Of a stretch of DNA of 64,000 nt, positions 13,188-60,199 are shown one piece after another (position 1 is the first letter of the stretch; each line of letters opens with the position of its first letter). Made by a program: the position numbers and the translations under genes. This DNA is from an uncultured Candidatus Saccharibacteria bacterium. Its GTDB lineage: Bacteria > Patescibacteriota > Dojkabacteria > GCA-002793355. The stretch covers positions 65,230 to 129,229 of the forward strand of contig CAZGEO010000002.1 of the NCBI GenBank assembly GCA_964525295.1. The letters are read 5' to 3'. Under the pieces are notes generated by a model. It was not told the DNA's origin and made no database searches. It was given only the letters and a program-made list of their open reading frames with translations.

Positions 13188-13272
13188 TAATTTTATTATA
13201 TTATCCTGTAGTGTATTTTATTTCTTTTGGGATTTATTGTCAAAGTTACTCAGTTAAGATGATCGCTTGAGA

Positions 13273-15075: not shown

Positions 15076-15187
15076 TATAAATGATGCTGTCTACTTATTG
15101 TGAATTGTAGCCGAAAATACCAGATAAAGTCAACGGTATGTTATCTCGTAAGTGGAGAACAGCATACTCAGGGTGATATTCCTTTAA

Positions 15188-16192: not shown

Positions 16193-16253
16193 GTAGTATT
16201 ATACTAAATTTTGGGGAGGTTAGACAATATCCTTTGCTTCGAATTGAATAATA

Positions 16254-16262
16254 TGGGATAAT
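16254..16262 (+). promoter_or_regulatory. Extended -10 TGgGATAAT, 5 nt before the ATG at 16268
   Basis: Fits the leaderless promoter pattern recurring in this window. Confidence 0.35.
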
Positions 16263-17296
16263 TGCACATGGGAAGATCTACTCCTCGTTCGCGATCGCAC
16301 GAGAATGAAGTTGAAGCAATTCTAGGGCAAGGTATTTCAGGTGCTCCAGTTATGCAGGTAAAAATGTCTGAGGGGCGATTTGCTTTAAAATTTGTGAATG
16401 GTGAAAAGGATTCTATCGAAGCTAAGATTCATGAGAAATGTCGAAAAGCCCAATTAGATAAAAACGGTCCAATCTTTTATTCACCAAAAACTATAGAAGT
16501 ATCTGAAAAACTGCGTACTAGGTCTCTTGAGATGTTTATAAATTATGAAGCAGCGAATTTGAGGATTCAGCCAGAGCTTTTAAGAACACAACTTGAAGCG
16601 AAAATTGTAGATAGGGGGCTAATATTGCAGTCAATACACTACAATGCATTGAAAAATGCAAAAATTGCATTTCTTTTTCCTATTGTTCAAGAGGGCTCTT
16701 GCGAACAAACATTAGCACTTATTGCGGCAAGCCATGATACTAAATCTAATAGGGCGAGCATTTTAGATAAAGAGCTCTTGATAAGTACTGTGTATAGAGT
16801 AGCAACTGCCCTGGATTGGTTGAAATGCGAAGGGTATATTCATGATGATTTGTCACTCGCAAATATGTTTGGTGTAGGTGATAAAACTCAGCTAGCTGAT
16901 TTTTCAAATGCAAAGGCAATTAGTGGCAATAACGAAAAACGCCAGCGAGAGCAATTTGTTCGATTAATTAGAGCACTGGCCGTTTCCGAAGGGTATTTCA
17001 ATATATTAATTGCAATTTTCTTACTTCAAGGGAAAGAGTCTCCTGTTGCCAATATGTATCGAAAAGATATTGATATTCCAAAGCAATTGAATATGTTTTC
17101 CGTCTTAGTAAGACCTCAATTTCCTATGCCCGCACCTGACGGAAAAAATGTCGATTCGTGGTTAGTTGCACTCGAAGCAAAATTCCAGACAGAATTTATT
17201 AAGGAATTAGGGGATAAATGGATCGTATCGGGAGAGAGTTACGAAGCGTTTGCTCAACAATTGATACCAAGATTTCGAAAAGCACTTGTTGATTAG
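16262..17296 (+). CDS. Protein-kinase-like protein of the eukaryotic-type kinase fold
   Basis: Gly-rich loop LGQGISGAPV, Lys in FALKF, catalytic-loop YIHDDLSLAN (an HxDxxxxN pattern) and DFG-like LADFS. The ORF-track start is a TTG; the first ATG is at 16268. Confidence 0.55.
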   Translation: MHMGRSTPRSRSHENEVEAILGQGISGAPVMQVKMSEGRFALKFVNGEKDSIEAKIHEKCRKAQLDKNGPIFYSPKTIEVSEKLRTRSLEMFINYEAANLRIQPELLRTQLEAKIVDRGLILQSIHYNALKNAKIAFLFPIVQEGSCEQTLALIAASHDTKSNRASILDKELLISTVYRVATALDWLKCEGYIHDDLSLANMFGVGDKTQLADFSNAKAISGNNEKRQREQFVRLIRALAVSEGYFNILIAIFLLQGKESPVANMYRKDIDIPKQLNMFSVLVRPQFPMPAPDGKNVDSWLVALEAKFQTEFIKELGDKWIVSGESYEAFAQQLIPRFRKALVD

Positions 17297-17302
17297 AGGG
17301 TT

Positions 17303-17358
17303 TCAATAAATTTCTAGCCTTACCACCCATTCCCCGTTTTCAATTTTCTAGGTAAGTA
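17303..17358. repeat. Copy A of a 56-bp imperfect direct repeat; the partner copy is at 19660-19715
   Basis: 48 of 56 nt are identical to 19660-19715. Copy A is a decayed duplicate of the 3' end of the minus-strand gene 19660-20670, with a stop codon in frame. Confidence 0.7.
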
Positions 17359-17383
17359 GTCTCAAATTGTGGCATAATTACAT

Positions 17384-19435
17384 ATGCATGGTGAGAGCAA
17401 ACGCGTAGAAAATAGAGATCGTGAAGCTACTAAAGAAACAAAAAATATAGTTCGTGATAGCAGGGTTTCTGAAGCTTTGAGTATTTTTCATGACAAAAAA
17501 GCATCTGCAGAACAATTAGAAAAAGCTTGTAGACTACTAGCATCGCCGGATTTATCATTTTTGAGAGAAGATTCTCTTCTTCAACGCCGAGATTGTACAG
17601 ATGTGCATAAGAGAAATTTACAAGATAAAATTCGCCAAAAATTTGATACTGCACAAATTATATATAGCGGAGAATATTCACCGTTAGTTCCGATTTCCGA
17701 TGACCAAGTAATCTCACGGAATATCAAATTTTCGAGTAAAATTAGAAGTCTCGGTTCATATAACATTGAAAAAGATAGAATCACACTAAATAGTAGTTTA
17801 GCGATTGAACAACAAAACTTTCCAACACTCCATCAATTAAGACTCACAGCAACAATAATTCATGAAGAAGAGCATCGCAAAAACTTTAGTAGACGTGCTT
17901 TGGGGCGATTATGTATTATAGAATCTAATGATAAGCAAAAAGAACCACACGTATCGCAACGTGATTTGGTTGTGCCAGAAAAGTTTTATAAGGCCTCCCG
18001 ACAGGTACTTTCTTGGATAGATGAAATTGGTGCATACTTGAGTGAAGTCGATATGTCAGATTATGGAGACTTTGCAGAGTATCTCAAAATGCTTAAGGAG
18101 CACAAACGATATACTGACACCGATGCGCCAAAGGCTGGCACTCTTGAGGTTTTAGTTATAACAATTGCTGCTGGTAAAGAAATTGGTGTGCAACCAGTAG
18201 ATATTCTTGAGCAATTGGTAACTCGTTATCAAATATACGAGAGATTACACCTTTCACCGCAATTGACCAGTGCACTTTTGCTCAGGCAAGCAGAAAGTAT
18301 CGTAAGATCAGAAGCCAAAAAAATTGGGAGAACAGAAGAATTATCAGAATTAGGGAAACGATATATCCTTCGTGGGCAGGTCAAATATTTACTTGCAAAT
18401 GCCTTAACAGCAGAAGCATTGCAAGAGGTTGGAGAAATGTTGGAGAGCAAACAAAGTTATGAATTAATTGCCCCTGAGGGGAATCTCGCTGCAAAGGTCT
18501 ATTTTATTCCCGATATGTTTAAATCAAGGTCTAATATTCCATCACGATATCAGCCTGCATTTGTTTTAAAGAAAATGACTGATGATAAGGGCGAATCTTC
18601 GCAATTCGGAAATTATCGCTTGTCATTACGATACTTTGACCCAACAACAGGGGGAAGTTATGTTGTTCCATCTAGAAATATCGAGTCGTTACGAAGTGAC
18701 GAATTTCAGAATGCTTTTAAAGATTTTGTTAAAACTTTACCAAATGAGCTTGTGAGCGATCTCTTGCGTAGTGCAAATTCATCAAGTGTTTTGCAAACAC
18801 ATCTGCATAGTTTAAGTGAGACATTGAGCGATCAATTCATTATGGAATTGAATATACAGCACGGTCTTGCATTTGAACGGGCGAAAGAGATACTTGCGAC
18901 GCGACAGCAGAATCGAAAGAGAACAAATTTTAGTCAAGCTATGAAGTTGCTACAAGAAGAATTGCTCGAAAAAGAATATGTCGCAGCACAACGACCGACA
19001 TATTTACCCGTTAAAATTTCAAGAATGAGCGAAAATGAAATGGGAAGTGTCACTACGATTGCATTGAGAAATCATTCAATTCAAGGAGTACCGTATGATG
19101 CTGCTGCGGTTGTTACTATACCAAATAAAGAATATCTTGACGCTGGTAAGTTATCTATAACGCTTGCATCAGTCGAGAAAGTACCCAATGAGGAAAGATT
19201 AAGGCAGGTTGCAAAAGCAATTATTGATTCACTTCCACACGTGACCAGGCAAGCGATGTCGTTAAATTATAGAGCAGGGAATTTTGAATTACCTCGAGAT
19301 GTTCAAGACACTCATGGTAGGCTGGTTAGCGAGGTAAGAAAGTACTTAGAAGAGCTTGGTTATGCAGTAATTGCTGGGGCAAAACAGAAAAGAATAATTA
19401 CCATTGCTGATTGGTTTAGTAAGTATGTTAAGTAG
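17384..19435 (+). CDS. Hypothetical protein, 683 aa, containing an HEEEH (HExxH-type) motif
   Basis: Long ORF. TATIIHEEEHRKN is a possible zincin motif, but the evidence is weak. An extended -10 TGgCATAAT at 17370-17378 ends 5 nt before the ATG. Confidence 0.55.
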   Translation: MHGESKRVENRDREATKETKNIVRDSRVSEALSIFHDKKASAEQLEKACRLLASPDLSFLREDSLLQRRDCTDVHKRNLQDKIRQKFDTAQIIYSGEYSPLVPISDDQVISRNIKFSSKIRSLGSYNIEKDRITLNSSLAIEQQNFPTLHQLRLTATIIHEEEHRKNFSRRALGRLCIIESNDKQKEPHVSQRDLVVPEKFYKASRQVLSWIDEIGAYLSEVDMSDYGDFAEYLKMLKEHKRYTDTDAPKAGTLEVLVITIAAGKEIGVQPVDILEQLVTRYQIYERLHLSPQLTSALLLRQAESIVRSEAKKIGRTEELSELGKRYILRGQVKYLLANALTAEALQEVGEMLESKQSYELIAPEGNLAAKVYFIPDMFKSRSNIPSRYQPAFVLKKMTDDKGESSQFGNYRLSLRYFDPTTGGSYVVPSRNIESLRSDEFQNAFKDFVKTLPNELVSDLLRSANSSSVLQTHLHSLSETLSDQFIMELNIQHGLAFERAKEILATRQQNRKRTNFSQAMKLLQEELLEKEYVAAQRPTYLPVKISRMSENEMGSVTTIALRNHSIQGVPYDAAAVVTIPNKEYLDAGKLSITLASVEKVPNEERLRQVAKAIIDSLPHVTRQAMSLNYRAGNFELPRDVQDTHGRLVSEVRKYLEELGYAVIAGAKQKRIITIADWFSKYVK

Positions 19436-19659
19436 TAGTGCTAACGATGTTCGCTTTATCGAGGCTCTCAGGTGGAAGTTGATAACGTGACGTTGTTTGT
19501 ATAATTCCCCGAAGAAACTTGTAGAATATACTGCTAAATGTATTGTTAAATTACAATATTACGTTGTTGAAGTACTTCGACATTATTGAATCCTTGTACC
19601 CCTATAAAGAAAATAGTTCATATTCTTGACACATATGGCGAGAAAAATTCAACGACGTC

Positions 19660-19715
19660 TTAATAAATCTCCACCCTTACTACCCATTCCCCGTTTTCAA
19701 CTTTCCAGGTAAGTA
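19660..19715. repeat. Copy B of the 56-bp direct repeat, forming the authentic 3' end of the gene 19660-20670
   Basis: Encodes the C-terminus TWKVENGEWVVRVEIY of the minus-strand gene. Confidence 0.7.
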
Positions 19716-20670
19716 ACCCAAGGTTAGTCTTTTCAAGGTAGCGTGCGGCAAGCGAGAGCGAGCGAGGTTCACGACAGGTAGCACCGGGCAGAAGGGCATT
19801 GCGAAGGGTAATGACGTCGCGCTGGCACGAGATGCGAACAGGAGCAGTCACATCCCCATGTTGGGAGATGTTGGAGAGGAGGTCGAAGAGAATGAGGGGA
19901 AGTATTAGTAAATGTGATGAGTTAATGTTTTTCTTGTAAGAATCAAATGAAATTTTGATATCTAGGATATCGCCAAAATATTTAGTTAGGATTGCGAGGA
20001 TTTCTTTTATCGAAGTACCTCTTATGGTATTGTTTGAATCTACAGGCGAGTTTCCGAGTAATTTAATTAGTGCTTCTTTTTGTTTCGAATCCTTTTGCCA
20101 TATAAATGAATTCAGCAAATTTTTGTTTGTATGTGCGGAGAGAGAAGAATAGAGTCCTCTTATAACGAGCAATGAGATTTTATTGTCTGTATGAGTATCA
20201 AGAAAGGCAAGTTTTAATAAGTAATTTTGTGTCATAAAAATGCTAATAGATATAAGACCGATTAAAAGAATATTTTCTGCTCCTACAACCCAATAAGGAT
20301 CCTTTTGAAAAGGTAGAATTTCAATAAATTCGAGTCCAAGCAAAAATAATACTAAGAATTGGAAAAAATAGACGTATTTTTTTTCATATAGAATATAAAT
20401 AAAAGGAGATATTAGTATTGGTAAAAGACTTGAGAAGGGAACAATACTTCCCCAAGTAAGAATTGTTGCGATGTAGGTTATTACTAATAAGAATACTAGT
20501 GCGTGGATAATTAACTTGGGATATATGATAGAAACAAGTAACGCAATTGTAATAGCAGAGCATATTATCAGGTATTCAAATTTCAAAGTAGCTCCAGAAA
20601 TTTGGTAGTAAAATATGATTGAAAGCGGTACTACACAAAATAGTAAAAGTAATCTACTAATCTTTTTCAT
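19660..20670 (-). CDS. Polytopic membrane protein with a degenerate histidine-kinase-like ATPase C-terminus
   Basis: Six or more TM helices in the N-terminal half. The C-terminal LLSNISQHGD (N-box-like) and GLL region are weakly HATPase_c-like. Overlaps the mutS start by 4 nt. Confidence 0.4.
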   Translation of the reverse strand: MKKISRLLLLFCVVPLSIIFYYQISGATLKFEYLIICSAITIALLVSIIYPKLIIHALVFLLVITYIATILTWGSIVPFSSLLPILISPFIYILYEKKYVYFFQFLVLFLLGLEFIEILPFQKDPYWVVGAENILLIGLISISIFMTQNYLLKLAFLDTHTDNKISLLVIRGLYSSLSAHTNKNLLNSFIWQKDSKQKEALIKLLGNSPVDSNNTIRGTSIKEILAILTKYFGDILDIKISFDSYKKNINSSHLLILPLILFDLLSNISQHGDVTAPVRISCQRDVITLRNALLPGATCREPRSLSLAARYLEKTNLGLLTWKVENGEWVVRVEIY

Positions 20671-37714: not shown

Positions 37715-37778
37715 AAGCATTTTAAGGCGGAATCCTACTTTACGTAGGGTTTCGAAATTAAGATACTTGAAATCCCTT

Positions 37779-37861
37779 GCCGGGGTGGTGGAATGGCAGA
37801 CACGTCAGCCTTAGGAGCTGATATCCGCAAGGGTGTGGAGGTTCGACTCCTCTCCTCGGCA
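37779..37861 (+). tRNA. tRNA-Leu(TAG), a type II tRNA with a long variable arm
   Basis: Acceptor GCCGGGG / CCTCGGC with a G-T wobble. Anticodon loop CTTAGGA. T-arm GGAGGTTCGACTCCTCT. Discriminator A. No CCA is encoded. Confidence 0.85.
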
Positions 37862-38070
37862 TTTCCTTCTTCTCTTCACTTCTCTACATTTTTATTAAAG
37901 CCTTCCTTTTCGCTACCGAAAAAGAACTTCTTTTTCGGCTCACGCTCAACCAGGCTTTATTCTTGGCGTTTCGCGCAGACAATAAATGCCGAGAGAAGTG
38001 AAGAGAAGAAGGGGATAGGGGATGTGAGGAGTCGAAACCCAAACGAGACAACAACAATTTGTTGTCGAGA
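37862..38070 (+). ncRNA. Structured element trailing tRNA-Leu: a 21-bp perfect long stem (37865-37885 / 37992-38012), inner hairpin CCGAAAAAGAA/TTCTTTTTCGG and hairpin GACAACAACAATTTGTTGTC
   Basis: It shares the 24-nt exact motif AGACAACAACAATTTGTTGTCGAG and the 13-mer ACCGAAAAAGAAC with the element trailing tRNA-Ser. The long stem is kept by different sequences in the two copies. Confidence 0.5.
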
Positions 38071-38284
38071 GCAGGGCGAGGTTACGCCTAAAATCCTTTC
38101 AAAGTTCAATGTTCAATTTCAGTGACGAAGCATGAGTCCTGAAATTGTTGGGGAACCGACTCCTCTCTCATCACCTTACTAATGCTGTTCGTTCACTACC
38201 GAAAGAACTGCTTCTTTCGTTTTACCGCTCGATAGAGTAGATCTTGTGTGAAGTCTCGCAAAAAGAATACAGAAATATTGAATG

Positions 38285-39343
38285 TTAGTATGTTCTGTTA
38301 ATAACGTAATCGTTCAATGATTGTAGAAATTCACGATATTCTTCATTAACATTCTTTAATTCATTCAAATTCTTATTCGACTCATTAATCAATCGCTTTG
38401 CTTCGTTAAATGCATAATCTTTTGCACCAGTGTCGATGAGAGCTTGTTTTGCTTTGGCGATCTCTGTATCGGTTGCCTTAAGATTGCCAAGTGCATTGCG
38501 AAGATCGGCTTGCTGAGTTGAGGTACCGTTCTTTATTGCATAAGCAACCATGATAGTTCCCTTGCCTTCTTTGATATCTGACGAAGAGGATTTTCCGGTC
38601 TTTTCTTCATCTCCGAATGTTCCGATAATATCATCGATTATTTGGTATGCAATTCCTGCTGGAACGGCATATTTTTCAATTTGTTCAATTTCTAATGAAC
38701 TTGCGTTTGCAAGCATTGCTCCAGCTGTTGTCGGAAGTTCGAAAGTATATCTCCCAGTTTTCAATTCATAAACTTTTAGAACATTTTCGAGACTTGGCGT
38801 TGTATGCTCATTGAGCGCATCAAGTGTTTGTCCGTAACCAACATCAATAATCTTTTTGTTTGCAAAGGCTGCAATACGTGCGTTTATTTCAGAATTATCT
38901 GATAGGGTATTGAGCAAATACATTCCTTGGTGAGAGACAACGTCTCCCATGCATATGGCGATACCCTCACTCAGGTGTTGCACATCATTGAGGTCAGCAT
39001 ATTTATCCATAAAACCATAATGTATTGTAGGATTACTGTATCTAATTGGCGCTCTATCCATTATGTCATCATGAATAAGCAGGAAGGTATGCAATAACTG
39101 AATACCCATTGCTCCTCGGAATTCCGATCGTTCAGATGCATTTCCATTTAACATCCGATGTGTCGCGATGAAAAGTGCAGGACGAAGTCGTTTTCCTCCG
39201 AAATATAAGGGGTAGGTTAGATTATAGATATCTTGAAGTTCTGGAGTGTATGTCGCAATATCTGAGCGTGCTTCTTGTAAAAAATCTTTCAAGTATGATT
39301 CTAGTTTATCGGATAATTCCGACAACTTCTCTTTGAAATTCAT
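38285..39343 (-). CDS. Polyprenyl diphosphate synthase (GGPP/FPP synthase of the CrtE/IdsA type)
   Basis: First DDxxD LLIHDDIMD and second DDxxD QIIDDIIG aspartate-rich motifs. Confidence 0.85.
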   Translation of the reverse strand: MNFKEKLSELSDKLESYLKDFLQEARSDIATYTPELQDIYNLTYPLYFGGKRLRPALFIATHRMLNGNASERSEFRGAMGIQLLHTFLLIHDDIMDRAPIRYSNPTIHYGFMDKYADLNDVQHLSEGIAICMGDVVSHQGMYLLNTLSDNSEINARIAAFANKKIIDVGYGQTLDALNEHTTPSLENVLKVYELKTGRYTFELPTTAGAMLANASSLEIEQIEKYAVPAGIAYQIIDDIIGTFGDEEKTGKSSSSDIKEGKGTIMVAYAIKNGTSTQQADLRNALGNLKATDTEIAKAKQALIDTGAKDYAFNEAKRLINESNKNLNELKNVNEEYREFLQSLNDYVINRTY

Positions 39344-40188
39344 TATGCAGTAATCAAATTTAGTAAAGCTCTCGCTATTATAAACCCTTTCTTGGGTTTC
39401 ACTTTCTTTTCAAATACTATTAATGGATTCTTTTCAATTTGAGTAGCTGTCCAATTGTACATATCGGCAGCCGTTTTTATTGCAATGCGATATCTTCTAG
39501 GAATATATTTGTAACCAGCTTCGGCTTCTTTTTGCCAAGTTCTGTAGTAAGTAAGTTGCGCGCGAACGAAGTTCGCGAAACTTTCTTCGTTCGCGCGCAC
39601 AGCAACTTCAGTGAGCTCAGAGAGCCCATATTTTTGCATTTCTGTCGTCGGAAGATATTGGCGACCTAGTGAAATATCTTCATTAATATCACGAATAAAA
39701 TTGATGTATTGCATTGATTTTCCTAGTGCTTGCGCTGCGGGATATGCAATTTCGGGAATTCCTAATAATTTACACATGAATAGCCCTACAACTTCAGCAG
39801 AGCCGTACATATATACTTTTGTTTCCTCAATGGTTGAATAGGTCTTTTTCGTTAAATCAGCTTGCATGGCATCAAGAAAAGCGATGGTCCATTCGGGGGC
39901 AAAATTCAACTCGTTCGCCAGAGCGATATAGTCATCAACAACAAAGTCACCACTTTGCCAATCATTTTTTCCTTTGTTGAGCATATCTAATGCGGTTTCA
40001 TATCGTTTTCTGAGGATATAGAATTCGGTTTCTTGTTGGGGAATAGCATCGACATAATCATCAGCTTTTCTAACGAAAGCATATAATCTGGTTACATATT
40101 CGCGGATCTTCGGTGGGAAAAAAAGGCTCGCAGTAAAATAGGTGGTACTACCATTTTTGAATAGTGCTTGTTGTTCAGTGCTTGGCAT
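39343..40188 (-). CDS. Phytoene/dehydrosqualene synthase family protein (CrtB/CrtM)
   Basis: YAFVRKADDYVD and the QYINFIRDINEDISLGRQYLP motifs of squalene/phytoene synthases. Confidence 0.8.
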   Translation of the reverse strand: MPSTEQQALFKNGSTTYFTASLFFPPKIREYVTRLYAFVRKADDYVDAIPQQETEFYILRKRYETALDMLNKGKNDWQSGDFVVDDYIALANELNFAPEWTIAFLDAMQADLTKKTYSTIEETKVYMYGSAEVVGLFMCKLLGIPEIAYPAAQALGKSMQYINFIRDINEDISLGRQYLPTTEMQKYGLSELTEVAVRANEESFANFVRAQLTYYRTWQKEAEAGYKYIPRRYRIAIKTAADMYNWTATQIEKNPLIVFEKKVKPKKGFIIARALLNLITA

Positions 40189-41665
40189 ATTGTGAATGAA
40201 CTAGATCTGCGGTAACCTTTCCTGAGATAATGACCATAGGCAGGCCAATTCCTGGATGCGTATAGTGACCGACGTAAAATAGGTTGGGAATTTTGCGGCT
40301 TTGATTGTATGGGCGGAAAGCAGCTGTTTGAAATAAAGTCTGTGCAAGACCGAAATTATTTCCTTGGAATGAATTGTACAGTGAATCTTGATCTCTATGC
40401 GAAATGATTCTCTTATAGATGATATGTTTTCGGATCTCTGTGTTAGTGATACTTTCCAAGTGAGTAATGACTCTGGTAAAAAGCTCTTCTCTTCGTTCAT
40501 CCGTGTCAACCAGACCTGACGCAACGGGTACGAGAACAAAGAGGCTTTCTCCGTGTTCCGGAGCTAATGATGGATCAGTTTTTGCCGTTGCATGAAAGTA
40601 GTACGACGGAATGCCTGTTGGCCAATCTTTCTTTGTAAAAAGGGATTCAAAGTGAGAATCCCAACTCTCTAATGAAAAGTAATAGTTATGGTGCAATGAA
40701 TTTTGGAGCTTGCAATCTAATCCTAAATAGAAGAGTACCGTAGAAGGTGAGATAGTTTTGTTTTTCCATTTTTCTTCGGGGATTGATTGCCACTCGGGAG
40801 CCAGTAATTTGGTTTCAACATGATGGTAGTCTGCGTTGGCTATGACAATATCTGCACTAATTTCTTTCTCTGCGACACAGAAACTCTTGACTATCCCATT
40901 GTCAACATTCAACTTGGTGACTTCGCTATTGGTAATAATTGTAACTCCTAATTCGTTCGCTAATTTAGCGATTCCCTCAATTACTTTATACATTCCACCT
41001 TTAGGGAACCAAGTCCCTTGTTCGAAGTCAACGTTAAGTATAAATGAGTAGATTGAAGGAAGGTTCTTGGGACTTGCTCCGAGAAATAGCGAATGCCACG
41101 TTACTAGCTTCTGCATTCTTGGATCTTTGAAATTCTTCTTGATTACGTAATCAAGCGGCAGGTAAGCCTGCGTTCGGATGCCATCTATTATTAACTCTTT
41201 TACGAACATCGAAAAGAGTGAAGGGTAATTTTTGTAAAGAAATTTATCTTCGGCTGTCTTTAGCATATATCTGCCATTTTCAAGAAGTTTTGCAAGTTTG
41301 GTGCTACTACCGGGCTCGATTTCTTCAATTAATTTGTAAAAGTCTTCTAGATTTGCAGGAATATCATAAAATTCTGACTCTGAGAAAAAAACGCGATAAC
41401 TTGGATCTAGGCGTTTGAGCTCATAATAATCGCTTTGCTTTTTACCAAAATCAGCAAAGAATTTTTCGAAGAGATGTGGCATCCAATACCAGGAGGGCCC
41501 CATGTCAAAATGGAAACCGTCTTTTTCAAAGAACATTGCACGGCCACCTACGATTTCATTTTTTTCGTAAATTGTTACGTTATATCCTTCTTTTGCAAGA
41601 TAACAAGCGGTGGTTAAGCCACCTAGGCCTCCTCCAATTATTGCTACGGTTTTATTCTTTTTCAT
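40175..41665 (-). CDS. Phytoene desaturase family flavoprotein (CrtI/CrtN)
   Basis: N-terminal VAIIGGGLGGLTTACYLAKEGYNVTIYEKNEIVGGRA dinucleotide-binding motif. The length of 496 aa fits CrtI-family enzymes. Confidence 0.8.
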   Translation of the reverse strand: MKKNKTVAIIGGGLGGLTTACYLAKEGYNVTIYEKNEIVGGRAMFFEKDGFHFDMGPSWYWMPHLFEKFFADFGKKQSDYYELKRLDPSYRVFFSESEFYDIPANLEDFYKLIEEIEPGSSTKLAKLLENGRYMLKTAEDKFLYKNYPSLFSMFVKELIIDGIRTQAYLPLDYVIKKNFKDPRMQKLVTWHSLFLGASPKNLPSIYSFILNVDFEQGTWFPKGGMYKVIEGIAKLANELGVTIITNSEVTKLNVDNGIVKSFCVAEKEISADIVIANADYHHVETKLLAPEWQSIPEEKWKNKTISPSTVLFYLGLDCKLQNSLHHNYYFSLESWDSHFESLFTKKDWPTGIPSYYFHATAKTDPSLAPEHGESLFVLVPVASGLVDTDERREELFTRVITHLESITNTEIRKHIIYKRIISHRDQDSLYNSFQGNNFGLAQTLFQTAAFRPYNQSRKIPNLFYVGHYTHPGIGLPMVIISGKVTADLVHSQYAKH

Positions 41666-42347
41666 AGACTAATCCTTGATAATACATATATAGTGGTCCA
41701 ATCATTCCCCCCGCGAGAAAGTACCAAATTACATCGTCTAGTGGTAGTGACAAAACATTAATGTGTGGAGTATTCGCATATAACCAGAAGGATTCAACCC
41801 ATCCTGGGACGATCATATCAATTACCCAGTATACTATGATTGCAATTATTGAGAATGAAAAGGCTGTAAAAAGAGCATTCTTCCATAGGTCAGGTCTAGA
41901 AAATTGCGTCAAGACAATTACTGCGCTTGCACTTAGAATTGTCGCATGCAATGAATTCAGATGAAAGAAGAAGAATGTCATGAAGAATACTGCTAAACCC
42001 GTGATTGCTAATTTCGCTGCTCTTATAACAGCATCTCGTTGAGAAATATATAGTTCGGGAGATTGAGTTGTTTTAAGATTAAAGATTGCTGTATGAATAA
42101 CTGAAGCAATCCCTCCTGAAGAAAATCCGAAGATCCACGGTTCGATTGAAAAAGAACTTCCTGTTACTGTAATTGGGTGATACCAATCGATACTATAGAC
42201 GGGGTCACTTATTTGTCCAATAAAGGCAAATATGACAGACATAAATACTTGCTGCTGGCGTAGTCGAGGAAATTTGAAATAGATTACAAGCCAAAGTATT
42301 AGGTATATGCATCCTAGTAATAAATAAGCAATACCTAGCAAGTTCAT
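41652..42347 (-). CDS. Lycopene-cyclase-domain membrane protein (CrtYcd type)
   Basis: Polytopic 231-aa protein at the head of the crt operon. The LPLDDVIWYF motif resembles the PxEE motif of heterodimeric-type lycopene cyclases. Confidence 0.45.
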   Translation of the reverse strand: MNLLGIAYLLLGCIYLILWLVIYFKFPRLRQQQVFMSVIFAFIGQISDPVYSIDWYHPITVTGSSFSIEPWIFGFSSGGIASVIHTAIFNLKTTQSPELYISQRDAVIRAAKLAITGLAVFFMTFFFFHLNSLHATILSASAVIVLTQFSRPDLWKNALFTAFSFSIIAIIVYWVIDMIVPGWVESFWLYANTPHINVLSLPLDDVIWYFLAGGMIGPLYMYYQGLVYEKE

Positions 42348-42510
42348 CGAGCAAGTATACCAGAAAAAGAGGCTTTTCTGAATAGGTAAGGTGAATTGAA
42401 AGTGGCTAGCTATACCCGCACTTCAATGAGTGCACTGTGGTATTTTCTGTGTGATATTCCACAAGAATCAAAAGGAGCGGGGTTATTAGATATTGTGGGA
42501 TTTAAAAATA

Positions 42511-42582
42511 TGCCGCTACGGGGAGTCGAACCCCGCCCAGAGGATTGAAAATCCTCTGTCCTAACCGATAGACGATAGCGGC
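42511..42582 (-). tRNA. tRNA-Glu(TTC)
   Basis: The minus-strand cloverleaf has acceptor GCCGCTA / TAGCGGC, anticodon stem GAGGA/TCCTC with loop TTTTCAA, and T-arm CGGGGTTCGACTCCCCG. Confidence 0.85.
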
Positions 42583-42859
42583 AATGGTGAATTATACAAA
42601 ATTGTAAGCGCAGAATCAATATCGAGAGCAAAACAATTATCAATTTTCAATTCTTAATGTTTAATATAAATGAATAGAGGAAGTTAATTACGAAAGCGGG
42701 GGAATTTTGCTTTCGATTTTGGGTTTATTGTTCTATTCGAAAATTAAGAATAATCATTATTAATGGAGAAGAAACCAAAAATGTAATTTGTTTGAATTGC
42801 TTATGGATAATTATATTGTTTCACATGAAATCCTTCAAAAAATATGCTACCATGTCAGC

Positions 42860-53646: not shown

Positions 53647-56600
53647 TTATTTCATCGGCCATTCCTTAATTAAACCATCAATCTCTTTCATAACCCTATC
53701 CGTATTTACTAACGCAACAATGATTTTCTGATAATGTAAAACTTCATCAAAACTCAATTTGCGACCTTTTCTATCTTTTAGCCATTTTTGAGCAGGTTGG
53801 TATCCACCAATATAAAATTCCCATGCAATTTTAGGAACACTATCAAAGTATTGGGTATCATTTATCCAAACCTTGTTTTCTGAATATTTTGGATTTATTA
53901 CTTCGTTTTCACCTGCAACTGGATATTGTGTTACCAATGAACTGCTGTTTGCATGTTCCATTAAATGATATTGCCTAATTTCTCGACCTTTTTCGACGAG
54001 TGACCAGAATAGCTTTTGATTTGATGTAAATGGAATTCGTGGGAAATCTATTTTCAGGAATTCTTTATATCGTTCTCGATATGTTGGAGAGTGAAGTATT
54101 GCGTAAATATAATCAAGAACATCTAGAGGATTGAATGTTCCTTCTTTGCCAGAGTCTGCGTGTTCGTGGTCAGGGATAAAATTGAGTTTTAGTTTACTTG
54201 CAATATGGTCAATAAATCTTTGATTTAAGTTCGGATGACGTCTTGTAGTGTCAAGTTGCGAATCAGTGTAAATGTATAGTGGAAAATTCATGGCGTTACT
54301 ACCAGTATTTCCAGATAAGTAAATCGCTTCAGAAATACTAGTTGTAATGAATGCATGGGCAAAGGAACTATCCTTCAGTGCTTTAGTCGTAAGTAATCCA
54401 ATATTGTTGCCTTTTACATAGTTTTGCATTATTTCAGTTCGCCATCTCCATAATACTTTGTTATCAAAGTATGTATATTTCTTCTCAAATGGTCTGTAAG
54501 CAATCGCCATTGTTTTTTCTGCATCAATTGCGATAGTGTTCTTATTTTGGATAATCCATTTTGCATAGTTCTTTCCCAAAGTATATTTGGTTCTAAAGGT
54601 TGTTTCGTCGTAATCAGTATTTTGTAAATCCTTTAATCGTGAAATGATTGATTCTTGATTATCAGAAATTGCAAATGAGTCACCCATTGTTACAATCCCT
54701 GAGACATTCCTATTAAAGATTGAGTCAATACGTATATAATTTTTATACTCGCCTTTTAGCTGATTGTCCTTGTACACGAAAAAGTATTCAGGCGATTGAT
54801 AGTCGAGTCTGGTCCATTGAATGCTTCCAATATTGGATTTATTTAGAACCGAATATTTTGAATCTCTTTTTCCAAATAAGTCTGCATGATTAACTTCAGC
54901 TAGTGTTTTTTTTGTTTTTTTACTTTTTATAAAAAAGTTTATACTGACCCCTTGCATTATATCGAATACGTTTTCGTCTTTTGTTCCATCAGGGGAGGTT
55001 TCTTTCTTCTTAGTATTTCCGTGAAGGTCCAAGATATAAATTTTATCGAATGTTTTAAGTAGGTGATTACGCATACCTCTAAACGTTGGATTGTCCAAAA
55101 AACCGTGATTGTTAATATACGCGATAATACCTTCCCCATTTTTCTCAATAAACCATTCTGCAAAGCGAATAAACTTTACATAGTCATCTTGAAGCCAATG
55201 CTTCTTTTCGCCAAAATGCACACCATCAACATATTTATAATTCTCGATCAGTTTTGTTATCCATTCTCCGTTATTTGAAGAAACACCGCTGTATGGAGGA
55301 TTACCCATGACAACCATGATTGGTTTTTCCTTCTTAACTTCGTTTGCTTCCATACTTTCAGTCGTTAACCACTGCGAAAGCATATCTTGTTGGTGAGCTC
55401 CGGGTTCTTCTAGCGAATTTGTAAGATAAACGCCGAGTCGTTTACCTTTTCCTTTGGTTGCTTCATAGCCAGTTTCGGCCAAGGTAATATCCAATTTTAG
55501 ATGAGCCATTGAGTAGCTTGCCATCAAAATCTCAAACCCGTGAAGTCTTGGGAGTAAATGTTCGTCAACGTAAGATTGCCAGGCGCCCGCTTGCCCAGTA
55601 AACCGAGTTTTGTAAATATGTTTAATAATGTGGTCCAAAAAGGTTCCGGTTCCAGTTGCTGGGTCAAGAACCTGAACTCGATGTTCAGATACTTTTTGTT
55701 TCTTCTTTGAGCCTTGTAATTCTTTTTCGACCTCGATCTTGCTTGTATCTGCGAGTCCATCGGCAATACCGAACTCAGTTTTCAATATGTCATCGACAGC
55801 ACGTACGATGAAGTCAACCACAGGCTCTGGGGTGTAATAGACGCCTCGAGCCTTTCGCATTTTCTGATCGTATTCTGCAAGGAATGTTTCGTAGAAGTGT
55901 ACGATTGCATCGGTTCGTTTTGTTTCTTTTCCGAAATTCTCGAGTAATTCACGTACATTTACATGATTAAATAGTTCCGCAATATCGTCGACAATCCAAA
56001 TAATTCGTTCATCAATATTGTAACCTGCAATTGTTTGGAAGAAATTCCTCAAAAATGGATTTGACTTAGGCAAGAGATTATTGGCTTCGTCACGAGTAAA
56101 AGTATCTAAGGAAGAATCATGGTAACGGGCTGCAAACATGCCGTAGGCGACTGTTTGAGCATAAATATCCGAGTATTGCTCAAGAGAAAGGTCACGAATT
56201 AATAATTGTTTGAAGACATCGAACTGTTGTTCGAGTGGCCCTTTCTCTGCAGTTACCTCGCTTAATGAGAGATATATTACATTCTTAAGCATTTTTGCCT
56301 TCTCAGCCATTAACGACGCTAACTCCTTTGGACTACGAATTGTAATAGATTTCTTCTGTGTGAAGTTGGTTAATACAGAGTCGAGTAGGGGAATATTCTC
56401 AGGAATAATCTCGATATTTCCGTTTGTTAGACGGGCAATTTCAATTCTTTGAACTTCAACCCCATTCAGAAAGAATCTATAATCAAGGTAGTTAGTGAAG
56501 CAAAGGTTGTTTAGAGAAGCTTTGTATCTATTAAATTGATTTTTCGTTTTGAATTCTTTGTCTAGATCGACGTCAATGTCTTTCGCTTCGATATACCCAA

Positions 56601-56796
56601 TTGGTGTCTTACCTTTTAATATTACAAAATCAGGTGCTCCAACTTTCTGTTGCTTCGGGTCGTTTACTGCATTAATGCCAGGGTTTAGTGTTTCTACAAG
56701 CGTTTCTAATGCTGGGCGGTAGGCGTGTTCACGTGCGTGACCGGTTTTGAATGTTTTAATGACTTCGTCTAAATATGATTGAACTGTGTTAGACAT
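53647..56796 (-). CDS. Type IIG restriction-modification enzyme of the MmeI family
   Basis: N-terminal PD-(D/E)xK region GHAREHAYRPALETL...PDFVI...GYIEAKD. SAM-binding VLDPATGTGTFL. N6-adenine MTase motif IV VMGNPPYSG. A C-terminal target-recognition region. Length 1049 aa. Confidence 0.8.
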   Translation of the reverse strand: MSNTVQSYLDEVIKTFKTGHAREHAYRPALETLVETLNPGINAVNDPKQQKVGAPDFVILKGKTPIGYIEAKDIDVDLDKEFKTKNQFNRYKASLNNLCFTNYLDYRFFLNGVEVQRIEIARLTNGNIEIIPENIPLLDSVLTNFTQKKSITIRSPKELASLMAEKAKMLKNVIYLSLSEVTAEKGPLEQQFDVFKQLLIRDLSLEQYSDIYAQTVAYGMFAARYHDSSLDTFTRDEANNLLPKSNPFLRNFFQTIAGYNIDERIIWIVDDIAELFNHVNVRELLENFGKETKRTDAIVHFYETFLAEYDQKMRKARGVYYTPEPVVDFIVRAVDDILKTEFGIADGLADTSKIEVEKELQGSKKKQKVSEHRVQVLDPATGTGTFLDHIIKHIYKTRFTGQAGAWQSYVDEHLLPRLHGFEILMASYSMAHLKLDITLAETGYEATKGKGKRLGVYLTNSLEEPGAHQQDMLSQWLTTESMEANEVKKEKPIMVVMGNPPYSGVSSNNGEWITKLIENYKYVDGVHFGEKKHWLQDDYVKFIRFAEWFIEKNGEGIIAYINNHGFLDNPTFRGMRNHLLKTFDKIYILDLHGNTKKKETSPDGTKDENVFDIMQGVSINFFIKSKKTKKTLAEVNHADLFGKRDSKYSVLNKSNIGSIQWTRLDYQSPEYFFVYKDNQLKGEYKNYIRIDSIFNRNVSGIVTMGDSFAISDNQESIISRLKDLQNTDYDETTFRTKYTLGKNYAKWIIQNKNTIAIDAEKTMAIAYRPFEKKYTYFDNKVLWRWRTEIMQNYVKGNNIGLLTTKALKDSSFAHAFITTSISEAIYLSGNTGSNAMNFPLYIYTDSQLDTTRRHPNLNQRFIDHIASKLKLNFIPDHEHADSGKEGTFNPLDVLDYIYAILHSPTYRERYKEFLKIDFPRIPFTSNQKLFWSLVEKGREIRQYHLMEHANSSSLVTQYPVAGENEVINPKYSENKVWINDTQYFDSVPKIAWEFYIGGYQPAQKWLKDRKGRKLSFDEVLHYQKIIVALVNTDRVMKEIDGLIKEWPMK

Positions 56797-56933
56797 AGGG
56801 GAATTATATGCCGAAAGCTTGGAAATGGCTAGGATTTTGTAAAAAGACGTGGGAGGATTTCACTACTCACTTTGCCCCCACCAAGAATTCGCCCTCCATT
56901 TGTTTCGCTCGTTGGGGCTCACTGTTTCATTTT

Positions 56934-59231
56934 CTAAATAGTGTTGGTTATGGAGGGGCCAGCTGACATATTCCATATGTCTTTAACGAAATTGTCAATA
57001 TCGGATGGTAAAACCACTTTCTTCAGCATTGGCAAGATGTTGTCGTTATAATGAGGTGATGAGGTCGATAGTTCATCTCTCCAATTCCATACTTTGGAAA
57101 CAATTTCTAAACCATCTAAATATTTCTTATCAATAAAATCTTTATACTTAATTTTGTATTCGCTATCATGTTTTTGGAGGAAACTTTTAATAAATTCGAA
57201 AACTGAATTATATTTATTATGTGTGAGAACCCCAATGTAACTAAGATATATTGCTGATTTGGGCTCGTCTGTATGCAAATCTGCGGCATGAAGGTGCTTT
57301 TCAATCATGTAAGTTAGAGTCTTTACGCTTTTCATAATAGTATCCTCACTATGATTATCAATGATTAATTTTATTGCAATGAATGTAGTTAACTGGAAAT
57401 ATGCTTCAATATTACTGAATTTCTCTTTTGGAATAATAAACCACGAGGAAAGGCTTGAATAGTCATTAATCAAGCGGTCAATATTTGAGATGTAATCAGG
57501 TTTTTTAATATTCGATCTAACTAAAAATAAAAGTTGTATCAGCTGTATTAAGTATTTACCTACGAGACTAAGAATATCAGAGTAAATATCAGTGGTCTCA
57601 CGGACATAGGACCTAAGGGAGAATGCCAATTCTTCATAAAAAGTTAATGCATTTTCTAGTACCTGTTCACTTTTAAGCGCATTTTTCGCAATTGATGTAT
57701 AAACGGAATTAATTAGCCACATATTGAAAATGTAAATGAACATACTATGATATGCACTTCCTCTTTTTACTTGCTGAATAAAGTCAGTGTATTTAAAGAA
57801 TAGTTTCAGAAAATCCGCTATGTTCGATTTCGCTGTAGAAATTGGTACAAAGAGAGATGCATTTAATGTAAATACAATAGTTTTAAAAACAGTTTGAACT
57901 ATTATTTGCTGTTCGTGTGTAATACCCCATTGAATTATTTCTTCTAATGATTCAATGACATTCGGAGCCAACAACTGATCTCTGTAACCAACAGTTTGAA
58001 TGGAGATGTTGTTTAATGAAACTTCTGCTTGATAAATGGATTCAAGGTTATTTGAAACAAGAATTTCTGATATTAGTGTCTTAAAGTAATGAAAGATTTG
58101 AAATGAAATGGGATTATCACCTAGCAGATCGTTTTTTCCATAACTTAATTTCAGTGATTCTAAAACTAGGCTTTCGTAGGTTTTAATCACACATCTCATA
58201 CTAGTTTCCTTTTGAGCAATCAGAAGCCTTTTTGCGAATCTGTTGAAATCTTCAAAGAAGTTCATGAACAATTCTTGGCTATCGCTATTAAATGTCAGCA
58301 GCCCATCCTTTGCTAACTCTTTTGATGAATTCCCTTTTCTTAACTGCAGGTACTGGTATAAAATTCTTGCTACTGAATCAATAGCTTGATTCGTTTGGAA
58401 ATCCTTCTGTTTTTCTGACAATTGTGTCGCAATCTCTATCATGCCTTGAAGGTTATCAAAAAGATATTTGAAATTTGTTTTTTCAGCAGAACCATAAACG
58501 AACTTGGTGATTTCTTCATTAGAGTAGTTGCTGTTTGCACTAATTACTTTTATGAAATGCTCAGCATCAATTTTGATTGTTTTTAATAGATTGCTACACT
58601 CATTTTCTAAATACTTGATTGCATTAGTTGGATTAACTTTCTGTGAGGTAGATTGGTGTAAGAAATCTATCAATATAAGAGCAAGAGTAATTAAAGAGAT
58701 TGCTGTAGCAGTAAAGAGTTTTATCCATGCTAAGTAAGTAGTGGTACCAGAAGTGAGAAAACCAATAAATAGAAAAAGTATAGTTATCGTTGCAAGATAC
58801 CTATAAATCTGTTGGTCACGTTTATCATGAATATACTTTTCGTAAAAAGAGCTAGACTGCAACTCATTTACACTTTGCTGAAGAAAATTGGTAAGAGAAT
58901 ATACTATTGCGATGATACCACCCATCATGCTACCTATTGCGAAATATCCGTTTGATAATGCCGAATAGTTTTCAAAGACAGGAAAATAAAAATATGTAAG
59001 AAACGAAAGTGTTAAACCAATAATAATTATTGTAATTCTAATAATATTCCGTGAATTCAGATCCCAAATTGAAATTGTTAGCAACCATCGCGATCTGGTT
59101 TTGTATAAGAATACCAAAAACTTAGCTCTTATTGATTTAACAAATATCTGTGCCGCGGATATTAGTGTTTTAATCCTAGCTATGATTTGGTTTTTTGATT
59201 TTTCGCGAATTGTTTTAATTGTGTTGGACAT
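56934..59231 (-). CDS. Hypothetical membrane-anchored protein, 765 aa
   Basis: Four or five N-terminal TM helices are followed by a roughly 560-aa predicted alpha-rich soluble domain. No recognisable motif. Very AT-rich. Confidence 0.55.
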   Translation of the reverse strand: MSNTIKTIREKSKNQIIARIKTLISAAQIFVKSIRAKFLVFLYKTRSRWLLTISIWDLNSRNIIRITIIIIGLTLSFLTYFYFPVFENYSALSNGYFAIGSMMGGIIAIVYSLTNFLQQSVNELQSSSFYEKYIHDKRDQQIYRYLATITILFLFIGFLTSGTTTYLAWIKLFTATAISLITLALILIDFLHQSTSQKVNPTNAIKYLENECSNLLKTIKIDAEHFIKVISANSNYSNEEITKFVYGSAEKTNFKYLFDNLQGMIEIATQLSEKQKDFQTNQAIDSVARILYQYLQLRKGNSSKELAKDGLLTFNSDSQELFMNFFEDFNRFAKRLLIAQKETSMRCVIKTYESLVLESLKLSYGKNDLLGDNPISFQIFHYFKTLISEILVSNNLESIYQAEVSLNNISIQTVGYRDQLLAPNVIESLEEIIQWGITHEQQIIVQTVFKTIVFTLNASLFVPISTAKSNIADFLKLFFKYTDFIQQVKRGSAYHSMFIYIFNMWLINSVYTSIAKNALKSEQVLENALTFYEELAFSLRSYVRETTDIYSDILSLVGKYLIQLIQLLFLVRSNIKKPDYISNIDRLINDYSSLSSWFIIPKEKFSNIEAYFQLTTFIAIKLIIDNHSEDTIMKSVKTLTYMIEKHLHAADLHTDEPKSAIYLSYIGVLTHNKYNSVFEFIKSFLQKHDSEYKIKYKDFIDKKYLDGLEIVSKVWNWRDELSTSSPHYNDNILPMLKKVVLPSDIDNFVKDIWNMSAGPSITNTI

Positions 59232-59372
59232 ACATATAATTATAACCTAAATGTCCCACCATTATCATTATTTGAATATTTTTTTAATTCATTCAAAATG
59301 AACTGCACGTTTTTATTAATCAACTCAGAATCACTGTTACAACAAATGAGATTATCAAATTAGTAATAGGCT

Positions 59373-59416
59373 GGGGTTTCGGTCACCTTGCGGAAGTTTT
59401 GTTCACTTCGTTTCAC
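59373..59416. repeat. Copy 1 of a 44-bp direct repeat; the partner copy is at 62756-62799
   Basis: About 40 of 44 nt are identical, with the core CGGTCACCT(T/C)GCGGAAGTTTTGTTCACTTCG. It overlaps the stop codon of the Abi_C gene. Confidence 0.7.
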
Positions 59417-60195: not shown

Positions 60196-60199
60196 AGTG

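Follow-up and report, generated by a model that had tools for sequence, protein, structure and literature searches.

The window analysed here is a 64,000-nt stretch of contig CAZGEO010000002.1 (assembly GCA_964525295.1) from an uncultured member of the Dojkabacteria, which are candidate-phyla-radiation bacteria. It contains three tRNA genes, for Leu(TAG), Glu(TTC) (42510-42583, minus strand) and Ser(GGA). Behind tRNA-Leu and tRNA-Ser lie structured trailers, which an earlier note, made from the sequence alone, had described as paired copies of one element; the tRNA-Glu gene is followed by an ordinary trailer without such an element. On balance, the two trailers are probably copies of a non-autonomous mobile insertion element that is specific for tRNA genes of Dojkabacteria and is mobilised in trans. 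The elements of this family are tiny and gene-less (126-300 nt, with no open reading frame (ORF) in the copies of the window and related loci), and the family is apparently undescribed. By kind it is a tRNA-targeting insertion element, that is, a new form within a known category.

Trailers behind tRNA genes in the window and in relatives

All of the stems, strings and hairpins reported in the earlier note were found where it had placed them, in both the Leu and the Ser trailer. Sequence and repeat analysis of the Leu copy confirmed a perfect 21-bp stem (37865-37885 / 37992-38012) that encloses 106 nt, an inner hairpin CCGAAAAAGAA-c-TTCTTTTTCGG (37916-37938), an inverted T-arm fragment GAGGAGTCGAA (38026-38036), which is complementary to 37842-37852 and is referred to below as the guide, and a trailing conserved hairpin GACAACAACAATTTGTTGTC (38047-38066). 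On the minus strand, the Ser copy repeats this arrangement, with a 20-nt stem of 95% complementarity (arms 62988-62970 and 62896-62877), a guide GGGATTCGAA (62870-62861) complementary to the tRNA-Ser T-loop and the conserved hairpin (62850-62831). The 24-mer that the two trailers have in common occurs exactly twice in the window, where 0 occurrences are expected, and the common 13-mer likewise occurs exactly twice, with no mismatch. Both trailers fold better than shuffled sequence (z = -5.2 for Leu and -3.3 for Ser). The ends originally assigned to the element, 38070 and 62826, fell short of its true extent. The units run on for approximately 90-100 nt, to 38156 (...GGGGAAC) in the Leu copy and to 62765 (...GGTGAC) in the Ser copy; a direct repeat of the tRNA 3' part comes next. 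Including this right repeat, the elements span 37862-38175 and 62988-62747 (-), respectively. We divide each unit into an optional long hairpin on the left, module A, and a conserved right-end core, module B (Table 1).

In both copies, C56 of the tRNA T-loop is the first base of the repeat. Position T55 of tRNA-Leu is 37843, C56 is 37844 and the discriminator A73 is 37861; in tRNA-Ser, C56 is 63006 and G73 is 62989. The repeat CGACTCCTCTC is identical over 11 nt between 37844-37854 and 38157-38167, and the repeat CGAATCCC is identical between 63006-62999 and 62764-62757 (-), while the remainder of each right copy has decayed.

Table 1. Features of the two element loci, in coordinates of the window
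Feature	Position	Strand	Basis
tRNA-Leu(TAG), intact target	37778-37862	+	ARAGORN; Rfam tRNA, 54.1 bits; sequence
Left (functional) copy of the duplicated tRNA-Leu 3' part, C56-A73	37844-37861	+	direct-repeat family
Module A of the Leu copy, optional long hairpin	37862-38020	+	folding; inverted repeats
Module B of the Leu copy, subtype B2	38021-38156	+	covariance-model match 38021-38169, 49.8 bits; fold
Right copy of the tRNA-Leu 3' part	38157-38175	+	direct and inverted repeats; fold
Terminator-like hairpin CGAAAGAA-CTGC-TTCTTTCG, then TTTT, 3' of the Leu element	38200-38223	+	sequence; repeat families
tRNA-Ser(GGA), intact target	62988-63077	-	ARAGORN; Rfam tRNA
Module A of the Ser copy	62877-62988	-	folding; inverted repeats
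Module B of the Ser copy, subtype B1	62765-62876	-	covariance-model match 62752-62876, 122.5 bits; fold; pair counts
Right copy of the tRNA-Ser 3' part	62747-62764	-	direct repeat
Truncated older B1 right end with decayed repeat, GGTGAC|CGAAACCCC	59373-59415	-	93% identity over 43 nt
3.3-kb stretch between the first Ser repeat and the truncated copy	59416-62746		Pfam, PHROGs, PADLOC; flanking repeats

The affiliation of the window with Candidatus Dojkabacteria was also borne out by homologues of its ribosomal protein L27. For comparison, we used contigs of relatives that encode homologues of ribosomal protein L27 (individual loci carry L numbers below); these include orthologous L27-tRNA-Leu-tRNA-Glu loci from several genomes. 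A script was run over all tRNA genes of the window and the related loci to look for downstream repeats of the tRNA 3' part. Such a repeat was present 126-294 nt behind about half of the tRNA genes, and its start was always exactly C56. Six related Dojkabacteria genomes share the design of the window copies, which they carry behind tRNAs for Leu, Glu, Ser and Arg. An exact-pattern scan of public genome contigs with the 20-mer hairpin yielded one true locus, L001, from Patescibacteria bacterium BroJett019, and three further matches that were due to chance, in coding or high-GC DNA. L001 contains two copies, behind tRNA-Arg(CCG) and tRNA-Ser(CGA), and its Arg copy is flanked by the perfect 21-nt repeat CGAGTCCCGCCGAGAGCATAT.

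At every insertion the conserved right end of the element abuts C56, and the tRNA 3' part (C56 to N73 plus 0-12 further bases) flanks the element on both sides. Because this part is duplicated across the insert, the upstream tRNA gene remains intact. Only one orientation of insertion was observed, and the target was strictly the tRNA T-loop. The downstream copy of the repeat decays after insertion: older copies retain 8-11 nt, and the longer repeats measure 18 nt (L008 Glu; Leu of L012 and L013), 21 nt (L001 Arg) and approximately 30 nt (Glu of L012 to L014), the last of these extending 12 nt beyond the tRNA end.

Empty sites were found at orthologous tRNA genes, namely at Leu, Glu and Ser(GGA) in L041, at Leu and Glu in L039, and at Leu and Glu in L009 to L011. 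At tRNA-Glu, one filled site and one empty site form an exact pair: the flank CACTCAATTTCT directly follows the tRNA in L009, which is empty, and follows the second repeat in L008, which is filled. This comparison defines the event as the gain of 164 nt of new DNA together with an 18-nt duplication. Furthermore, tRNA-Leu is occupied by different subfamilies in the window and in L012, and tRNA-Glu holds three different inserts, in L008, L012 and L040. Thus, insertion at this T-loop position happened repeatedly. The copies at tRNA-Leu and tRNA-Glu of L012 are 85% identical in module B. Tandem arrays with truncated older copies, as well as internally deleted copies, are present also in L008 and L009. 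A mobile-element footprint was among the candidates put forward in the earlier note, and this reading is well supported by the filled and empty orthologous tRNAs, the fixed start of the repeats in the T-loop, the independent insertions and the tandem arrays.

Fold of the right-end core and segments complementary to the target

Module B is approximately 112-115 nt long. The minimal elements, at Leu and Glu of L012, consist of this module and a 16-nt spacer that is not conserved. Folding, one of the checks suggested at the outset, gave the same minimum-free-energy structure for all copies, a three-way junction on the tRNA-sense strand. Its first helix, P1, is formed by the 5' guide and positions ~56-64 of the downstream repeat, that is, the 3' strand of the T-arm; in the window Leu copy, too, the right repeat pairs with the guide. 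The inverted T-arm fragment that had been regarded as specific for each tRNA is real, and a better description is that of one P1 strand, which pairs with the T-arm 3' strand of the downstream repeat. P1 is retained and even longer in old copies with otherwise decayed repeats, measuring ~16 bp in the window Leu copy and 13 bp in L001 Ser. P2 is short and bears a hairpin of variable sequence (GACAACAA..., TGAATGTAG... or GAATGCGC...) with YAAY loops. P3 has 5 bp, and its 3' strand consists of the last four bases of the element and C56, so that the insertion junction is held within a quasi-continuous helix. It is followed by a purine-rich symmetric internal loop (AGGA/GAGG or AGU/UGAG) that is closed by a conserved G.U pair, and then by P4; the window Ser copy has the AGGA/GAGG form. 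P3 covaries with the terminal bases of the element (GGUCG/UGAC|C, GCUCG/UGAG|C, GGCCG/UGGC|C and GCCCG/UGGG|C). Two subtypes were distinguished. B1 comprises the copies of the window Ser locus, L001 and L040 and the related forms of L008 Glu and L012; B2 comprises the window Leu copy and its homologue behind a Ser-like gene in L008 (L008:18776-18988), which have other hairpins in place of the P3-P4 arm.

A covariance model of the core, R1, was trained on six copies, with the window Leu copy and one L008 copy left out. It recovered all known copies with E-values of 1e-12 to 1e-34, including the two untrained ones (E = 1.8e-12 for the window Leu copy; 32.2 bits for the L008 copy). Over approximately 316 kb, strong matches were located only downstream of tRNA or pseudo-tRNA genes, and R1 found no further copy in the window, in the 10 kb upstream of it or in other tRNA-free DNA. 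A search of this kind had been proposed as a check on the element, and it did reveal further copies, downstream of tRNAs in relatives. The statement that stems of divergent sequence stay paired also held, and it extends to more helices than those first noticed. In an alignment that was fitted to the model, so that the figures are somewhat inflated, 84.7% of cells were paired, compared with 40-48% when the partners were slid, and 20 of the 32 pairs showed compensatory changes; none of 500 shuffles reached the observed values. The tRNA-sense strand was more stable than its complement in all nine copies examined (9/9), and it formed 32 G.U pairs versus 14, an asymmetry that could stem in part from a G+U-rich composition.

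The guides match the tRNA behind which they lie, over 11 nt for Leu, 10 nt for Glu (including the unusual T59 of this lineage) and 10-12 nt for Ser. This matching implies that pairing with the T-arm 3' strand is under selection. In the Arg copy of L001, the guide GAGGGATTCGAA is instead a perfect 12-nt complement of the T-arm of tRNA-Ser(CGA) from the same genome, and its pairing with tRNA-Arg is limited to 10 nt, one of them in a G.U pair. Both repeat copies of this element are nevertheless tRNA-Arg sequence, perfect over 21 nt. We interpret this copy as the product of one recent jump from Ser to Arg in which the guide of the donor was kept; guides would accordingly be inherited from the donor and adapt later. 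A Ser-type guide between two Arg repeats suggests that the repeat comes from the target. If the element had instead brought along a Ser 3' end, tRNA-Arg would have been destroyed, which favours duplication of the target.

Two classes of model can be set against each other on this basis. In the first, a circular element with its own tRNA 3' end recombines at 55|56, either as a classical attP or at a folded-strand site like attC or the attP(+) of CTXphi. In the second, a segment of the target is duplicated at insertion, and the right end is precise at 55|56 while the left end lies at or beyond N73. The second is favoured by the Arg copy of L001 and by the Glu repeat of L012, which contains 12 nt of lineage-specific flank.

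Not every copy has module A. L012 lacks it, L001 Arg has a small hairpin instead, and in L008 Glu a terminator-like hairpin followed by T9 takes its place between the tRNA and module B. Module A is homologous between the Ser copies of the window and L001 (L001:6035-6144), the L040 copy and others, and its closing stems retain ~20 bp despite differences in sequence. Each of the six full copies of module A (6/6) contains an internal segment complementary to the junction of tRNA end and element start, over 8-16 nt, a length that at most ~2% of shuffles reach in each case. The complement covers tRNA bases 69-73 and the first bases of the element. The Leu complement of the window is 10 nt long (2 of 1000 shuffles reach that), with AAATGCCGAG (37984-37993) pairing to CTCGGCATTT (37855-37864), which includes the junction CTCGGCA|TTT. 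The Ser complement, AAAAACGGAG (62912-62903), is also 10 nt (reached by 4 of 1000 shuffles) and lies against CTCCG|TTTTT, and that of L040 Glu is 16 nt. In all copies with a full module A the left junction is exactly at N73; copies with module B only have 0, 0 (this value with a query), 3 or 12 extra flank bases duplicated. Taken together, the guide with P3 and the complement in module A span both junctions of a full element with intramolecular helices. In addition, base pairing is possible between the guide and the T-arm 3' strand of the tRNA itself, around module A.

Array at tRNA-Ser, variant copies and neighbouring genes

Downstream of the Ser element, the truncated older right end (Table 1) lies directly behind the stop codon of an AbiJ-like gene. 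The intervening stretch encodes a DUF998 protein, a 290-aa ORF without known function, a HARE-HTH protein and the AbiJ-like protein (PADLOC AbiJ, 1.3e-12), and it may be the cargo or island unit of a tandem array at tRNA-Ser. Beyond the truncated copy are a 765-aa ORF without a family, and a 1049-aa Type IIG/ISP restriction-modification enzyme, in low-GC DNA. The truncated copy is located inside a defence island that extends over 53647-61003 downstream of tRNA-Ser, with a GC content of 0.34-0.37. When the hydrolase adjacent to tRNA-Ser and the AbiJ-like gene were used in protein searches for orthologous or cargo-bearing loci, the query itself was the sole match.

At the Leu locus, the terminator-like hairpin downstream of the element does not reach the G-C criterion of our terminator scan and may be the native terminator of tRNA-Leu. 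Over 27 nt, the region that contains it (38192-38224) shares ~88% similarity with the part of module A around the inner hairpin (37909-37935); an older unit, or an original duplication that was longer, may have left this trace. An ancient duplication of ~100 nt at this locus is conceivable, with support from a local similarity of 27 nt only and none from a global alignment. Contigs L006, L007 and L005 from Logan end at window position 37859 or 38042, two of them, from different samples, inside the tRNA-Leu 3' end and the third just past the guide, and the stretch missing between these ends is module A plus the guide. The ends may reflect heterogeneity of the population, inversion between the inverted T-arm copies of 11 bp, or drop-out of the sequencing at the hairpin.

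Several variant arrangements were observed in relatives. The near-identical genomes of L012 and L014 differ by a 621-nt indel (L012:11278-11898 versus L014:11277), which has its left end inside the tRNA-Leu element, after hairpin 1, and takes in what remains of module B, the repeat and a gene for peptide deformylase (def). L008 contains an odd tRNA-like gene (L008:19100-19215, minus strand; Rfam tRNA, 32.7 bits) that was not called by ARAGORN, with an extended D region and a 7-bp hairpin with a 3-nt loop in place of the anticodon arm. Next comes a conserved block of 22 nt, GGTGCCAGACCCACATGCYCCG, reminiscent of a tRNA-Ser 3' end that has mutated (14/22 positions). The same block, with no tRNA body before it and with module A after it, occurs on the minus strand at L013:18030-18110, L014:19955-20040 and L040:15855-15935; in L040, module B and the repeat CGAATCCCCTCTCTGC are present as well. 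Directly upstream of the L040 element and on the same strand are three ORFs without Pfam matches (L040:15936-19265, minus strand; 292, 281 and 546 aa), the largest of which has several CxxC pairs.

Among the other genes of the window, that for ribosomal protein L27 (37310-37714) encodes a Lys/Val/Ala-rich C-terminal extension of ~55 residues (KKVVAKKTVAKKAVK...), and the closest L27 homologues align to just 65-90% of the query. A carotenoid-type cluster lies between tRNA-Leu and tRNA-Glu (38285-42347) and comprises a polyprenyl synthetase, a phytoene/squalene synthase, an FAD-dependent desaturase and a lycopene cyclase; of these genes, relatives also show only those for the polyprenyl synthetase and the lycopene cyclase. 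Seven consecutive large ORFs (294-683 aa) without a Pfam family at E <= 1e-5 occupy 10955-20670.

Origin of the elements and comparison with known systems

The resemblance of the two window trailers can hardly be a product of chance or of misassembly. Although the ends of the Logan contigs show that the region is hard to assemble, the exact 24-mer, the homologous copies in independent NCBI, ENA and Logan assemblies and the E-values of R1 are incompatible with such an artefact. We also consider it improbable that the trailers are host-useful RNAs that are co-transcribed with the tRNA, in which the helices would serve 3'-end processing, termination or insulation or form a small regulatory RNA, the ~20-bp stem of module A would be an RNase III site, the complements of T-arm and acceptor end would be functional, and copies would have spread by duplication or gene conversion. 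Such a role would agree with the fold being favoured on the tRNA-sense strand, with P1 being kept or extended in old copies, with the ~20 bp retained by module-A stems of different sequence and with the result of the terminator scan, which found no terminator between tRNA and element in the window copies. However, orthologous tRNAs of sister genomes lack the element, many copies are truncated, internally deleted or decayed, and minimal copies lack module A altogether. Moreover, the exact boundary at C56 and the perfect duplications of 18-30 nt are the signature of an insertion and not a processing signal, and in L008 Glu a terminator precedes module B. A dedicated role in tRNA processing, which had been raised among the early candidates, found no support.

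A more serious rival, which we nonetheless regard as unlikely, is that the trailers are classical att-site remnants, internally deleted leftovers of tRNA-integrating islands or prophages, comparable to cis-mobilizable elements (CIMEs), whose tyrosine integrase crossed over in the T-loop. The attP would then have carried the tRNA 3' end, module B would be the double-stranded arm region for integrase and accessory proteins, and the palindromes would be protein-binding sites. Repeats that extend from the T-loop to the tRNA 3' end or just past it are the textbook signature of integrase-mediated integration into tRNA genes, and the repeats of the elements have this extent. The tandem arrays with a defence-gene island behind tRNA-Ser, the truncated and internally deleted copies and the 621-nt indel, which has one end within an element and carries def, also fit such an origin. 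On the other hand, no integrase is present beside any of the ~13 insertions or elsewhere in the window; the earlier note had held that an element found only next to integrase genes would be an att remnant, and no copy adjoins one. Although it is a single case, the Arg copy of L001, with its Ser guide and Arg repeats, should have become a chimeric, dead tRNA-Arg if the tRNA end had been borne by the element. In addition, different tRNAs have received minimal copies of equal size, as at Leu and Glu of L012, and four nested helices with compensatory changes, conserved G.U pairs and a consistent strand bias would not be expected of double-stranded protein-binding arms. Finally, the elements had no match in IMG/VR, among GenBank phages or among PLSDB plasmids.

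We therefore return to trans-mobilised insertion elements and to how they might move. A single-stranded form of the element, RNA or single-stranded DNA, would pick the target by pairing of the guide with the T-arm 3' strand. Joining would begin with the right end, at the precise position 55|56. The left end would follow downstream of the tRNA with lower precision, except where module A holds it at N73 as a splint, and the target duplication would arise from subsequent gap repair or second-strand synthesis. The enzyme would be supplied in trans; a DNA strand-transferase that works on a folded strand would fit, and so would a reverse transcriptase that uses target priming on a tRNA read-through transcript. 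With no terminator intervening in the window copies, co-transcription of the element with the tRNA is plausible from the sequence, and this would allow the read-through model. It is also possible, though less likely than not, that the element is a programmable, nucleic-acid-guided insertion system in which one single strand splints both new junctions with internal segments. The guide and the 5' strand of P3 would splint the right junction and the complement in module A the left one, and 8-12 nt of pairing to the T-arm 3' strand would set the target, which mutation could change. The guides adapted to Leu, Glu and Ser and the off-target jump from Ser to Arg are consistent with guided insertion.

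Several observations weigh against trans-mobilised, single-stranded insertion. The copies are few and related (~13 insertion events), the jump from Ser to Arg is a single case, and a long block of identity reaching the tRNA 3' end is typical also of classical integrase att sites. The inflation of the pair counts and the base composition behind part of the strand asymmetry, both given above, belong here as well. In L008 Glu, the strong terminator hairpin with its T9 would block read-through from the tRNA promoter. No gene for a mobilising enzyme came to light in the DNA searched: Pfam detected housekeeping genes, carotenoid genes and the defence island, and no integrase, transposase, reverse transcriptase or Cas1, among the window ORFs of at least 120 aa; PHROGs and PADLOC detected no recombinase, transposase or reverse transcriptase among the ORFs around tRNA-Ser, and neither L001 (by Pfam) nor the gene tables of L008-L014, L039-L041 and L055 showed an integrase or other recombinase, a transposase, a reverse transcriptase or Cas1. 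The 10 kb upstream of the window contained no integrase, transposase or reverse transcriptase. Group II introns have been reported as absent from 95 complete Patescibacteria genomes (PMC13011429), which lowers the prior for a resident retro-mobility system.

Sequence databases and the literature gave no earlier account of the family. At the Rfam gathering score only the tRNAs were detected, and in E-value mode the elements matched nothing better than E = 0.5. Exact-pattern scans of metagenomes (JGI) and viruses (IMG/VR) with TCGAA-N12-hairpin returned 0 matches, viral scans with right-end motifs returned 24 matches, all due to chance in high-GC coding DNA, and a metagenome scan for displaced tRNA-Glu 3' ends (VCGACTCCCCGTAGCGGCA) returned 13 chance matches in high-GC DNA. 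GenBank phages and PLSDB plasmids, searched with BLAST, contained no match. A full-text search of the literature, including a recent systematic study of Patescibacteria tRNA genes, found no description of the element.

With roughly half of the examined tRNA genes bearing an insert, the elements are a major unannotated component of the intergenic DNA of these very small genomes, and they are a likely cause of assembly breaks and odd tRNA calls. They also mark tRNA-Ser as an insertion hot spot with defence genes in a candidate-phyla-radiation bacterium. An essential single-copy gene survives entry of the element, whose own insertion junction is enclosed by covarying helices and whose target-complementary segment varies with the occupied tRNA. 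Few mobile elements combine such traits, and the combination points to a new type of folded-strand recombination site or to guide-directed insertion. If the guide-and-splint architecture does reflect how insertion works, the mechanism would be programmable and categorically new; if, in addition, the intermediate is RNA, the element would be a bacterial target-primed retroelement resembling short interspersed nuclear elements (SINEs), in a phylum without group II introns.

Some identities were rejected on their defining features. A T-loop intron is ruled out, because a complete tRNA copy stands upstream and it is the downstream copy that decays. Core motifs of hammerhead, hepatitis delta virus, hairpin and twister ribozymes are absent, and Rfam gave no match to them; more generally, no curated Rfam model (ribozymes, group I and II introns, HEARO and omega RNAs, transfer-messenger RNA and others) matches the elements. 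A T-arm mimic on the opposite strand was excluded because the predicted stem does not pair. 'Peel-and-paste' transposition of the IS91 / HUH type makes no duplication and would need an element-borne tRNA end, and a casposon would be expected to have terminal inverted repeats, which are missing here, and a duplication of fixed length. A retron consists of msr-msd immediately upstream of a reverse transcriptase gene, and no ORF with a reverse transcriptase domain follows any copy, by Pfam and in the gene tables. In common with MITEs (miniature inverted-repeat transposable elements), and with elements related to repetitive extragenic palindromic (REP) sequences, the elements are small, non-coding, multicopy and hairpin-rich and need mobilisation in trans. 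Unlike MITEs, they have neither conserved terminal inverted repeats nor conserved left ends, their duplications (18, 18, 21 and ~30 nt) have one fixed end, and they insert only at the tRNA T-loop in a single orientation. Palindrome-associated transposable elements (PATEs), which derive from IS200/IS605, have subterminal hairpins at both ends and insert 3' of a short motif without target duplication, whereas our elements make a long duplication and their minimal copies lack the left hairpin.

The remaining systems share more specific features with the elements. As in integrase-mediated tRNA integration of the T-loop sublocation class and its derivatives without an integrase (CIMEs and remnant islands), the target is the T-loop, the repeat reaches the tRNA 3' end or passes it, the gene is restored, and arrays form in which older units are pushed outward, with a defence island downstream. 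The differences are that no integrase is nearby (window, L001 and related gene tables), that units of only 126-300 nt proliferate as such onto different tRNAs, that the repeat is target-derived in the one informative jump and that the conserved arm is a covarying single-strand fold and not a set of double-stranded binding sites. R2 elements with their short internally deleted elements (SIDEs), and stringent pairs of long interspersed nuclear elements (LINEs) and SINEs, likewise have one exact junction beside a structured 3' module, with a variable second junction, duplications of variable length and heterogeneous or truncated 5' parts. R2-type elements are also transcribed together with the host RNA gene in which they sit, as is predicted for our elements. 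These systems are eukaryotic, and no reverse transcriptase/endonuclease partner was found in the DNA searched here. To our knowledge, target-primed reverse transcription other than by group II introns is unknown in bacteria. TnpA of IS608, the exon- and intron-binding sequences (EBS/IBS) of group II introns and the bridge RNA of IS110 provide a parallel for an internal segment that is complementary to the target beside the insertion point, for a second segment complementary to the element's own end and for a guide that varies with the occupied site, here the tRNA. The pairing is longer than in IS608 (8-12 nt versus 4 nt), the fold differs from those of all three, none of them makes a long target duplication, and TnpA, a DEDD recombinase and an intron ribozyme are absent here.

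The integron attC site and the attP(+) of CTXphi, an integrative mobile element exploiting Xer (IMEX), are similar in that structure is conserved while sequence varies and only one strand folds well, in that inverted target-like copies ~100 nt apart pair to place the crossover in a pseudo-duplex, and in that new units enter beside a fixed site and form arrays. Unlike attC, the elements have no R and L boxes (RYYYAAC/GTTRRRY) and no G|TT crossover, the junction being N|CGANTCC; unlike the site of CTXphi, their inverted sites are T-arm sequence and not dif-like XerC/XerD sites. Neither attC nor CTXphi makes a target duplication of 18-30 nt, no link of the elements to IntI or Xer emerged, and their pseudo-duplex is interrupted by a three-way junction.

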